Source of the DNA: Fidelibacterota bacterium
Lineage (GTDB): Bacteria > Fidelibacterota > Marinisomatia > Marinisomatales > UBA1611
DNA: 64,000 nucleotides
NCBI GenBank assembly: GCA_018649625.1
Contig: JABIHN010000016.1
Coordinates: forward strand, 23,734-87,733
Reading direction: 5' to 3'
A program made the position numbers and the translations under genes. The notes under the pieces were generated by a model. It had not been told where the DNA came from, did no database searches, and saw nothing but the letters and a program-made list of their open reading frames with translations. Below, piece by piece: positions 59,523-63,771 of the stretch; the stretch's first letter is position 1, and the number at the start of each line of letters is the position of its first letter.

Positions 59523-60920
59523 ATGAAAGATAAATTAAAAAATAATCAAGGTCAAGAATTGGACGTAAAAACATCTGATTTGGATACTGTTATCGATGCC
59601 AATAAAAACCTCTATGATAAGTTAAATAAACTGCCCGAGATTGAAGCTTTAGAAGCCATTGTCTTAGATGAAGAAATTGAAGATACATCTGCTGATAAAT
59701 CTCATCCTTTTCTTAAAATATTTAATAAGCTGCATGGTTTATATATTGAAAATGAGCTCGTTCGATATGCTGCTTGGTCAATTGTATTAATATTAATCTC
59801 AACATCTGCTCTTACAATTGTTGAATATGATATGTTTAAAGAGAGCGTGACGGATCATGTTGGGGATACATTTATTTTTGGTGGGGATCAGCCAAATTGG
59901 TTAGATACATTTTTCCACACATTTTGGTGGTCAATTGTTACATTTACCACTGTTGGGTATGGTGATGTAAGTCCAGTAACTCATCTTGGAAAATTTCTTA
60001 CTATTATTATAATGCTTTTAAATTTTGGCGTCGTCACATTATTGGGCGGGGCTGTTGCATCTGTTTTGGTTGCACAACGATTAACGGGAGATGATACATT
60101 GGACGAAAATAAATTTAATGGCCACTTGGTCATTGCGGGATGGAATTCATATGTTCCATCAATTTTAAAACTAATTGACGCCAATCAAGATGCAACAGAT
60201 GTTGTTATTTTGGTGAATGAAACAGACCCTGATATTATTCAGCGAGGGTTATCGGATTATGAAAGATTGGATATCACTCATATTCCTGAGAATTTTACCA
60301 ATGAATCAACATTGAGGAAAGCATTTCTGGAAAAAGCGGATACTTTCATGATATTACCTGATAATTCAGGTTTATTGCCTCATGAGCAACCCGATGAAGA
60401 TAAAACAGTCTTAACTTGTTTAACTGCAAAAGCTATTTCAGAATCTTGTAATGTTATTGCTCATGTTTTAGATCCTGAAAATGTTTCCCATCTTCAGCGA
60501 GCAAATGCAAATGAGATTGTGATTCCCGACGATCATGTACCTCACCTTTTAGCAAAACACGTTACTGATCCGGGTGTCCCACAATTTTTTGATGATCTCA
60601 TATTACAGGAAGAAAAAGATAAGGGGCTCCAAGAAGTTAAAATACCAAAAAGTTTAATTGGAAAAGCTCATAATAAAATATCTGCTTTTTATAAATTCAA
60701 ATACAATTGGCTTTTAGTTGGGTATGCGGTACGAAAAGCTGGATTTAGTTTAGATGATCAAATGGGAGAGAGTGGTAGTCCACTTATTCGAAGTATGATT
60801 AGGGAGCAGTTGGAAGGTGCGGGAGTTAATCTAACAAGTGATGAACATGTAGTTGTGGAAATTAACCCATCGGATGACTATAAAATTGATGAAAAACATA
60901 GCGCATTGGTCTTGAGGTAA
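59523..60920 (+). CDS. 2-TM potassium channel with RCK domain (MthK-like)
   Basis: FWWSIVTFTTVGYGD selectivity filter; HLVIAGWN RCK start; HLQRANANEIV. Confidence 0.93.
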   Translation: MKDKLKNNQGQELDVKTSDLDTVIDANKNLYDKLNKLPEIEALEAIVLDEEIEDTSADKSHPFLKIFNKLHGLYIENELVRYAAWSIVLILISTSALTIVEYDMFKESVTDHVGDTFIFGGDQPNWLDTFFHTFWWSIVTFTTVGYGDVSPVTHLGKFLTIIIMLLNFGVVTLLGGAVASVLVAQRLTGDDTLDENKFNGHLVIAGWNSYVPSILKLIDANQDATDVVILVNETDPDIIQRGLSDYERLDITHIPENFTNESTLRKAFLEKADTFMILPDNSGLLPHEQPDEDKTVLTCLTAKAISESCNVIAHVLDPENVSHLQRANANEIVIPDDHVPHLLAKHVTDPGVPQFFDDLILQEEKDKGLQEVKIPKSLIGKAHNKISAFYKFKYNWLLVGYAVRKAGFSLDDQMGESGSPLIRSMIREQLEGAGVNLTSDEHVVVEINPSDDYKIDEKHSALVLR

Positions 60921-60923
60921 AAT

Positions 60924-61487
60924 ATGAATCCTACAGCAGAACAAATACAAAAGATTAACCATTTTAGTAAAGTACCTTTGGATATGTGTAAGAAAATTGC
61001 TTCAGCGGTTGAATTACAGGAATGTCAGCCTAAAAAAGCCTTATTGACTGAAGGAGACACAGGTGATACCATGGTCCTTGTTTTTCAAGGACAAGTTGAA
61101 GTGTCAAAAAATATGATGGTAAAAACAGCCAGTGGACTGGCAACATCAAGAAAACCGATTATTCGTTTAGAAACAACAGACCCTCCACCAAAATCGCCAC
61201 CTATAACAGAGCCTACTGTTTTTGTGGTTGAAGCACCTGCGTTTGGAATTGGTGAATTTTCACTCGTTTTAGATGATGCAATCCGGACGGCTCATGTTCA
61301 TGCAACTACACCTGTTCAATATGGAATTCTTACCTTAGAAGATTTTTCACGGATTGTAAAAGACAATCCTGAAATTGGTGGATTTGTATATTTTGAAGTT
61401 GCGAAGGCTGCAGTGCAAAATTTGGCAACAGCCAGCGCTGATATATCAAACCTAACTCAAGCTTTCTTTTTTGCTTTAACTAGATAG
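60924..61487 (+). CDS. Stand-alone cyclic-nucleotide-binding domain protein
   Basis: EGDTGDTMVLVFQGQVEV; phosphate-binding cassette GEFSL...RTAHV; no HTH. Confidence 0.85.
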   Translation: MNPTAEQIQKINHFSKVPLDMCKKIASAVELQECQPKKALLTEGDTGDTMVLVFQGQVEVSKNMMVKTASGLATSRKPIIRLETTDPPPKSPPITEPTVFVVEAPAFGIGEFSLVLDDAIRTAHVHATTPVQYGILTLEDFSRIVKDNPEIGGFVYFEVAKAAVQNLATASADISNLTQAFFFALTR

Positions 61488-61518: not shown

Positions 61519-63771
61519 CTATTTTTGAATTTCTAACCTTTCACCCGATTTAGGTTTTTTTATTTCCAGATCCAATTCCCAAATAGCAACAGCATCTTGG
61601 ATAAGCATCACTTCATTCTCATGAATAAATTCATCTGCATTTGCAATATCGATGAATGAATTGAGAAGGGCATGCAATTGACCCGAATTTATTTCATCTG
61701 ACTTTTTGATGTTCAATAATGAATCTTCATACTGTTTTTGTCTTGAGCCTTCATTTTTAAGATCAATGAATTTTCCGGTAGCCAAACCAAAATCTATATT
61801 AAAACTCTCATTTGTAACGTCCTTTACAAATTTCCCAAAACTCTCAAATATAACGCCTTTCTCTGATTCATCAATTTCCTGATCAGCAAAAAAGGAAATA
61901 CATAAAAGAGAATAAAGAATATCGTGATCCAAAGTCCAATCCACTTTTGGTTCATCTTCAGATTTTTCACGAGCCGAAATTTTGCGCTGTAAATCTTCCA
62001 TACGCTCTTTATCTGCATCATTTAAGTATCCATCCTGTTTTTGGCGTTTTTGCATCAATTTATCGGCTTCAAGGGATAAGAATTGCACATCACGTTCAAG
62101 AGCTTCCAGTCGATTATCCATGAGCTGGAATAGGAGTTCTTTAAATTTTTCCAGCTGATCTTTTTCTGGTGCGAAATAAATATTTAGATTACCACGGTCA
62201 GTATCTTCCCAAAAGGTGGGTCCAAAAATAGATAATAGAAAGCATTGAGTATTAGCGTTTGCTTTAAAAGATTTTTCATCAAAGTAAGCAAGGTCATCCA
62301 AATAATCTTCTGCGATGGCAGTGGCAAAATCTTTTTTATCTACTGATAAATAGAAAAGTGCTAGTCCAATTTGAATTCTCCGAGTTCCATTATTCCCACC
62401 TAAAATTCCTTTATCCACTCCATCTTTTGAATAGCCAGGCGGTTTATCTAATTGAAGTACAAGTTTCAATAAATCCATTTGATCTTCATCGTTCCATCCT
62501 TTTTCATGAATGAGGACTTGACACTTTCTTAATTCAAATGTGAGTGTATCTACAATAAAGTAAAGAGATGGATTTCCTTCAGCATTTTTATAAATATCAT
62601 TAGCGTAGAATTTGAATTTATCATAACAATACTTTGCCATATCTACCCGATCAGCTTTGACGTATTCCTGAATCATATTTGAATAATGAAATGACAGATT
62701 ATACAAATTTCGAGGTTCATTGTTTTTATATGCATGCTTCATGGCAAACCGAAAAAGAGTATTAAACCGGATATTCACATTATCCATAATTATATTATCA
62801 TCCATTTCGATACATGTAATTCCAATATCCACTAACTCAGCAGGAATGAGAGATGCAATATCAAAACGGTCATTTTCAATCATTTTTATATACGAATTCC
62901 CTAATAGTCGAAATGTTTTAATTTCATAAAAGGTTAGAGAGTCAGCCATATCTTGATATTGAATATCTGTATAAGTCCGAAAGGTTGCATTTGCTTTGAT
63001 TGTAGATGTAAGATGAAAAAAAGTTGGATTAAAGCTCGATTTTTCACGAATGTAGGTTTGAATAATTGTACTAATCTCGCTGATAATTTCTGTCTGCGTT
63101 TCTTTGAATTCTGTAAATGCCAACAAATCATCTAATTGGTCTAATGACCCCATAATTTCTTTTTGATATTCTTCCACAACATCAATGTTATTTTTCATAG
63201 CAGAGAAGATAGACGGTTTATTCATTTTATAGATAAATGATTTTATTATACCCGAAATTGTGATTACAACATTACTTGTTTTTGAATAAAGTAATATATA
63301 AAAAATGTATGGTAGAGTAAAAATAGAAGCGAGAAAAAGATAGACATACGTGTTTAATACAACACTTGATACACGGCCTAAAGGCTCAACGTAAAACATA
63401 ATTATAACAGCGTGCAAAGATGCAATAATTAAAAACCATACATAATTTATGCTCAACCAGTCTTTGACAAAGAGGTCCATTAATTTTGGCGATGATTCAG
63501 CTGCAATAGCAACCACAATGATTAAAGTTCCTAAAACCATTGCTAAAACGCCTCCCCATATTTCAGGAGCAAAACCAAGGTCAATGTTTTTATGGTCTGA
63601 TAATACTATATTGAAAGTTGTTTCTAGAAAATTCGCAATAGATGGAAAATATGAATGAAATAGAATATCAGTAATTATTATAGAAATAAAAACTAAGACA
63701 AAACTAATAATAGTTCGGTACTGAAATTGAAGGCTATTTAATTTTACTAGAGTTAGATAAATTTTTTCCAT
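61519..63771 (-). CDS. DUF2254-like membrane protein fused to a C-terminal TerB-like domain
   Basis: About four N-terminal TM helices; long helical region with FWEDTDRG; coiled coil; paired ADQEIDESE / ADEFIHENE TerB motifs. Confidence 0.65.
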   Translation of the reverse strand: MEKIYLTLVKLNSLQFQYRTIISFVLVFISIIITDILFHSYFPSIANFLETTFNIVLSDHKNIDLGFAPEIWGGVLAMVLGTLIIVVAIAAESSPKLMDLFVKDWLSINYVWFLIIASLHAVIIMFYVEPLGRVSSVVLNTYVYLFLASIFTLPYIFYILLYSKTSNVVITISGIIKSFIYKMNKPSIFSAMKNNIDVVEEYQKEIMGSLDQLDDLLAFTEFKETQTEIISEISTIIQTYIREKSSFNPTFFHLTSTIKANATFRTYTDIQYQDMADSLTFYEIKTFRLLGNSYIKMIENDRFDIASLIPAELVDIGITCIEMDDNIIMDNVNIRFNTLFRFAMKHAYKNNEPRNLYNLSFHYSNMIQEYVKADRVDMAKYCYDKFKFYANDIYKNAEGNPSLYFIVDTLTFELRKCQVLIHEKGWNDEDQMDLLKLVLQLDKPPGYSKDGVDKGILGGNNGTRRIQIGLALFYLSVDKKDFATAIAEDYLDDLAYFDEKSFKANANTQCFLLSIFGPTFWEDTDRGNLNIYFAPEKDQLEKFKELLFQLMDNRLEALERDVQFLSLEADKLMQKRQKQDGYLNDADKERMEDLQRKISAREKSEDEPKVDWTLDHDILYSLLCISFFADQEIDESEKGVIFESFGKFVKDVTNESFNIDFGLATGKFIDLKNEGSRQKQYEDSLLNIKKSDEINSGQLHALLNSFIDIANADEFIHENEVMLIQDAVAIWELDLEIKKPKSGERLEIQK

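Follow-up and report, generated by a model that had tools for sequence, protein, structure and literature searches.

A widespread two-gene module of an MthK-like RCK potassium channel and a separately encoded cyclic-nucleotide-binding protein, with a proposed role of the latter in channel gating

The window analyzed here is a stretch of 64,000 nucleotides from a Fidelibacterota bacterium (contig JABIHN010000016.1, positions 23,734 to 87,733). Two consecutive genes of its forward strand are considered, one encoding a K+ channel with two transmembrane segments (2-TM), a TVGYG filter and an RCK domain, and the other a 187-aa protein limited to a cyclic-nucleotide-binding domain (CNBD). Both are separated by three nt, and a GAGG motif lies in the last codons of the channel gene. 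This organization was already described in a first-pass annotation of the sequence and was confirmed here by open reading frames and domain matches. Features are as follows, in window positions:

59523..60920, forward strand: 465-aa K+ channel of the 2-TM type with one RCK domain (ORF and domain matches)
59949..59963, forward strand: TVGYG selectivity filter, residues 143-147 (sequence)
60087..60101, forward strand: GGAG (60087) and in-frame TTG codon of Leu193 (60099), likely internal start for a soluble RCK (codon conservation, Shine-Dalgarno-like motif, MthK register)
60129..60527, forward strand: RCK N-lobe (TrkA_N) lacking GxGxxG, with His314 and Leu316 at the positions of MthK Glu210 and Glu212 (sequence)
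60741..60851, forward strand: helical insert of 35-40 residues (approximately 407-443) in the RCK C-lobe, candidate CNBD docking site (alignment, model)
60914..60918, forward strand: GAGGT ribosome-binding motif of the CNBD gene, inside the last codons of the channel gene (sequence)
60924..61487, forward strand: 187-aa CRP-like cyclic-nucleotide-binding protein, stand-alone and lacking an HTH (ORF, Pfam, model)
61173..61217, forward strand: clade-specific Pro-rich loop at residues 84-98, preceded by an elongated beta4-beta5 hairpin
61251..61292, forward strand: phosphate-binding cassette, G110-E111...R121-T122-A123 (sequence, alignment)
61428..61481, forward strand: residues 169-186, the conserved tail part of the long C-helix (149-186 in the model) and a candidate surface for dimerization and for docking on the channel

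The channel starts with an acidic extension of about 75 aa, followed by Pfam matches to Ion_trans_2 (residues 112-182) and TrkA_N (203-335). In a set of 160 pairs, which includes near-duplicates and has an effective number of about 64-65, the filter of the channels read TVGYGD in 144 cases, was not covered or unmatched in 11 and displayed variants in five. MthK was the solved structure closest in sequence (E 1.8e-15), and the model of the cytoplasmic part matched the MthK RCK over 205 residues (Z 18.8, rmsd 2.1 A). As in MthK-type channels, a TxGYG 2-TM pore is combined with a single C-terminal RCK domain made of N- and C-lobes; an octameric gating ring and K+ conductance, further traits of this channel type, are putative here. 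The arrangement typical of CNG channels, six transmembrane segments and a CNBD in one chain, was not encountered, as every paired locus that was read displayed a 2-TM channel, a stop codon and a separate CNBD gene.

The RCK domain departed from known ligand-binding relatives at two sites. The GxGxxG dinucleotide loop of KTN/RCK proteins (KtrA, TrkA) was not found, its place being taken by G-W-N/K-x-x-x without a second conserved Gly. The Ca2+ site of MthK consists of Asp184, Glu210 and Glu212 (entries D184N and E212Q were among the structure matches); in the window channel both Glu residues are replaced, by His314 and Leu316, and position 314 was either His or Tyr in 52 out of 52 members of the window's clade. 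The lack of these two glutamates and of the KTN nucleotide motif fits a situation in which sensing was handed over to the partner CNBD. Channels of type B displayed Glu at the position of MthK Glu210 in 19 out of 19 cases, and Ca2+ sensing may persist among them. In the ESM Atlas, a cluster rich in Thermodesulfobacteriota was seen for type B.

The channel gene probably has a second product. Eight residues before the first RCK strand, a Leu column of the window's clade and type A displayed TTG in 129 of its 132 Leu codons, as compared with TTG shares of 11-28 % at seven other conserved Leu columns. This proportion was still 50 out of 53 after thinning to less than 80 % identity, and five of the nine rows lacking Leu in this column had ATG or GTG instead. 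A Shine-Dalgarno-like motif preceded the codon in 130 of the 139 rows examined. In the structural register with MthK residues 106-322, Leu193 corresponds to MthK Met107, the residue at which the separately expressed soluble RCK of MthK begins according to the available sections of PMC2573919. An internal start that yields a soluble RCK is thus likely here as well, and its conservation at the Met107 position makes a ring of eight RCK domains likely.

The CNBD of the window scored slightly below the Pfam cut-off for cNMP_binding (E 8.6e-6, 26.1 bits against 27.5), probably due to its inserts; its relatives exceeded this cut-off. The AlphaFold2 model (pLDDT 92) consisted of a beta-roll with B and C helices and matched the CNBDs of CRP/GlxR and PKG. 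No HTH was found, the C-helix being the end of the protein in the model, and the match to the CRP profile was restricted to residues 109-177 and reached 22.6 bits, the cut-off being 266. As modeled, without HTH, the protein is not a CRP/FNR transcription factor. The intact GE...RTA cassette and missing HTH reported in the first-pass annotation were both recovered, and G, E and R were present in 160, 154 and 157 of the 160 paired CNBDs, respectively, the Arg being followed by Thr in 127 and by Ser in 27. The Pro-rich insert noted there is real, yet, being confined to the window's clade and a sister clade from Chloroflexota, it is clade-specific and not a defining feature of the family. A more general trait was the tail of the C-helix, with a mean column entropy of 1.54 next to 1.42 for the cassette and 2.1-2.7 for other well-filled regions.

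Conservation of the pair across genomes, which had been proposed as a check, was evident in all groups considered. A CNBD-side scan of species-representative genomes returned 58 loci, 56 of which harbored a full-length CNBD gene directly behind the channel gene (gap of -38 to +61 nt); the remaining two were a 20-residue fragment at a contig edge and a non-family match of 24 %. These 56 paired loci represented, per their records, Marinimicrobia, Chloroflexota, Poribacteria and Spirochaetales. The more distant form of the pair, type A (about 375 and 170 aa), was adjacent in 76 out of 80 metagenome loci. The other four comprised L133 with a 600-nt spacer, L139, which was unread, and two loci starting at contig edges; the spacer of L133 (2356-2961) included a 122-aa ORF between channel and CNBD. 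Among 151 genomes of Chloroflexota, nine out of nine family members examined adjoined a channel gene, one unpublished genome being left out. A channel match was found in 208 out of 300 Marinisomatota genomes and a family CNBD in 205 of these 208, as counted by comparing result rows by eye. The three exceptions were two channels running off their contigs and one weak match (G008), and two of the 92 genomes without a channel match displayed a weak CNBD match. All 20 distant loci picked by channel match had the CNBD next to it. In 201 Spirochaetota genomes, the 82 best channel matches that reached the C-lobe or paired by position were considered; 80 of them had an adjacent CNBD (68 by coordinates, 12 by reading the locus) and two ended at contig edges.

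Controls gave the opposite picture. No CNBD was found beside other RCK channels in the DNA fetched for 20 loci (17 informative, three contig ends), and no channel beside 12 CNBDs from outside the family. The genomes counted are related, and the above numbers reflect a few old lineages rather than independent trials; the pairing is far beyond chance, and the two-gene module is real, old and widespread. Two genomes (G051 and G266) contained two channel types, each accompanied by its own CNBD. Genomic neighborhoods differed between clades: carB and a gene of 750 aa flanked the pair in the close clade only, and most type A loci were flanked by valS and by a gene resembling RNA methyltransferases, as judged from the sequences. 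The pairing is not explained by general synteny, since these flanks are limited to clades and other phyla display other neighbors.

The divergent pair beside carB characterized the window's family (f1), which displayed no type A CNBD match above 1e-28; other Marinisomatota families harbored type A. As the divergent pair was also present in Chloroflexota, Poribacteria and one spirochaete bin, both genes may have been transferred together. The 151 genomes searched from the phylum of L058 yielded no family CNBD, and plasmid matches were generic CRP-type domains only. The 750-aa gene of the window (61519-63771, reverse strand) is convergent to the pair and encodes a membrane protein whose C-terminus weakly matched TerB-like domains; its conservation next to channel and CNBD was limited to the close clade of Marinisomatota. 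Metatranscriptome contigs bridged the channel-CNBD junction in four out of four runs, yet spanned the whole 12 kb and entered this convergent gene, so that they do not demonstrate transcription or an operon. A promoter and terminator scan yielded matches at chance level.

A candidate contact site was identified in the channel. The helical insert of the C-lobe was displayed by 12 out of 12 paired channels and by none of 17 unpaired controls aligned with them; modeled without a partner, it formed two helices of low confidence. Three main insert sequence types were distinguished, and to each corresponded a particular type of C-helix tail in the CNBD. Trees calculated for 69 pairs displayed three matching clades with a distance correlation of 0.91. 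Linked genes share descent, and the matching trees and motif types are therefore consistent with contact rather than proof of it. Mean-field coupling between channel and CNBD over the 160 pairs, with the small effective number given above, produced noise and no usable contact. Four Chloroflexota loci (L224-L227) took an intermediate position with respect to type A and the clade of the window, with a Pro-rich loop and a tail and insert of mixed type.

Taken on genomic evidence, contact between the CNBD and the channel is likely. The first-pass annotation had suggested a CNBD that acts on an RCK channel in trans; the almost complete co-conservation, the agreement of the trees and an insert restricted to paired channels speak for this association, while nucleotide binding and gating are parts that we infer. 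We consider it reasonably probable that the CNBD docks on the RCK gating ring and relays a cAMP signal to the gate. Four steps, given here in order of falling support, would be involved. The channel gene would give rise to full-length subunits and to soluble RCK domains, which, like those of MthK, would assemble into a ring of eight RCK domains. The CNBD would, probably as a dimer similar to CRP, grip the C-lobe insert via the conserved tail of its C-helix. It would bind a 3',5'-cyclic nucleotide, most likely cAMP. Finally, a ligand-driven shift of the C-helix would tighten or release the contact with the insert and, through the ring, open or close the gate. The complete picture, to which we give about an even chance, would be a widespread class of bacterial K+ channels with an MthK-like RCK ring gated by cAMP via a detachable CRP-like subunit held on a helical flap, encoded by an operon with three products (pore subunit, soluble RCK and sensor) and representing a second route to cyclic-nucleotide gating without CNG/HCN architecture.

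The same linkage and insert data would fit equally well a structural or inhibitory subunit bound to the ring, in which the nucleotide would not drive gating or would only tune it secondarily; ligand-free CNBH domains of KCNH channels offer a model for this. Conservation of the C-helix tail is similar to that of the cassette, and three spirochaete loci (L193-L195) retained the CNBD gene beside the channel despite having lost the cassette Glu and Arg, which indicates that the pairing does not depend on nucleotide binding in every case. Their CNBD is a candidate ligand-free variant. These loci are close kin, so that the three exceptions amount to about one event; co-loss of cassette and cyclases was looked for and not seen, their genomes holding seven to nine cyclase matches. 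Against a structural role in general stands the conservation of the cassette Glu and Arg (154 and 157 out of 160) across clades that are only about 20-28 % identical, and we regard this explanation as unlikely, if the most serious of the alternatives. Somewhat less probable still is an absence of any contact, both proteins serving one response through co-transcription and the CNBD acting elsewhere, for instance on CRP, as a pairing partner or buffer, or as a buffer of cAMP. It folds like the N-terminal domain of CRP and has a long C-helix, two full CRP/FNR proteins are encoded in the source genome (G000), and no fusion with the channel was found. Such independence would, however, leave unexplained why the insert is restricted to paired channels, why insert and tail types change together and why G051 and G266 harbor a separate CNBD beside each channel type.

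Docking as proposed above could also be combined with another ligand, cGMP or a further cyclic nucleotide such as cUMP or cCMP. The first-pass annotation had read the Arg-Thr of the cassette as a hint of cGMP binding, and the CNBDs of Pycsar effectors, to which a weak similarity was found (E 1e-7 to 1e-9), point in the direction of other nucleotides. The available sections of PMC6093708 state that a Thr following the cassette Arg is able to contact syn-cGMP; they also state that SthK, which has the equivalent Thr (T378), strongly discriminates against cGMP for opening, cGMP being a very poor partial agonist. The hint was not supported in the present family, as the Thr found in 127 of the 160 paired CNBDs was replaced by Ser in 27. 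Of the positions that determine base specificity, the three class III cyclases of the source genome carry Lys/Thr or Lys/Asp, which corresponds to the adenylyl pattern. CNBD position 171, presumably equivalent to CRP Ser128 (by-eye alignment to CRP), was Ser, Thr or Asn in 159 out of 160. No cyclase gene was found as a conserved neighbor of the pair in loci from several clades, which likewise does not favor a ligand other than cAMP. Altogether a ligand different from cAMP appears improbable and is the least supported of the three alternatives. By row comparison, a class III cyclase was present in 201 of the 208 channel-bearing Marinisomatota genomes versus 55 of the 92 without a channel, a gap largely caused by one streamlined family (pairs in 0/29, cyclases in 1/29). 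G000 also encodes a diadenylate cyclase, and an input of c-di-AMP on the RCK itself is therefore possible.

The module shares features with several known systems. To our knowledge, the sensor of described cyclic-nucleotide-gated K+ channels is part of the channel chain, and RCK rings described so far bind their ligands directly. The present channel resembles MthK in its 2-TM TVGYG pore, its one RCK and the likely internal start at the Met107 position, and differs from it by the C-lobe insert of 35-40 residues, by His/Leu at Glu210/Glu212 in the window's clade and by the CNBD gene directly after it. MloK1 and SthK display a K+ filter and a CNBD with canonical cassette, including Arg-Thr in the case of SthK; they are, in contrast, 6-TM proteins with the CNBD in the chain and no RCK ring. 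KefC is an antiporter-type efflux system whose ancillary subunit, KefF, is flavodoxin-like, and no cyclic nucleotide is known to be involved. The likeness here is that of an RCK/KTN K+ transporter with a C-terminal domain binding a separately encoded small protein (title of PDB 3l9w). The N-terminal domain of CRP/GlxR and the stand-alone CNBDs of PDB 3gyd and 2pqq have the same fold, cassette spacing and long C-helix, whereas the present CNBD lacks a DNA-binding domain and has an elongated beta4-beta5 hairpin, a conserved extended C-helix tail and a fixed place behind an RCK channel gene. POPDC proteins, which bind cAMP and, as separate proteins, bind and regulate the K+ channel TREK-1 (abstract of PMC12256823), are membrane proteins from animals whose target is a two-pore channel without RCK ring, and hence an analogy, not relatives.

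The arrangement was unfamiliar to the first-pass annotation, and our literature searches, whose scope mostly excluded subscription reviews of prokaryotic K+ channels, retrieved no description of an RCK channel paired with a separate CNBD. In its available sections, a survey of microbial K+ channels mentioned CNBDs on 6-TM channels only (PMC2234077), and those of a 2025 review of K+ channel modularity contained no such pair (PMC12332018). If true, an RCK ring with a separate sensor would combine both of the best-studied modes of K+ channel gating and show how a ring acquires a new ligand through an added subunit. For many spirochaetes, and for most of the genomes sampled from an abundant marine phylum, this would mean a connection between cAMP and either membrane potential or K+ balance. 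A two-part cAMP-controlled channel might also serve as an engineered actuator.

Fused forms were searched for separately. None was detected among 99 longer proteins, which is weak evidence; among the best 150 matches of an exhaustive search, the 48 reaching the C-helix tail were all stand-alone proteins of 164-194 aa (counted by eye). A 587-aa open frame in L175 was rejected as a fusion, being a GC-rich overlap. A role of the pair in Pycsar defence was also dropped, as the CNBD likeness was weak and generic and no cyclase was a conserved neighbor.

Some loci displayed unusual additions. In L246 (646-4182, forward strand), a class III cyclase of 1178 aa with AAA and TPR domains was convergent to the CNBD gene, with an overlap of 4 nt; the same arrangement was located by coordinates in G197 and G230 and was limited to one genus. 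Two spirochaete family channels ended open frames of 1211 and 1258 aa (L198, 1942-5577, reverse strand, and L199, 1284-5060, forward strand, respectively), the N-terminal 800 residues or so of which were mostly acidic and displayed no Pfam match over the cut-off. Poribacteria channels from L047, L049 and L055 (3586-5004, forward strand) carried an N-terminal CxxC...CxxC segment resembling a zinc ribbon, with a weak match to Zn_ribbon_LysW.
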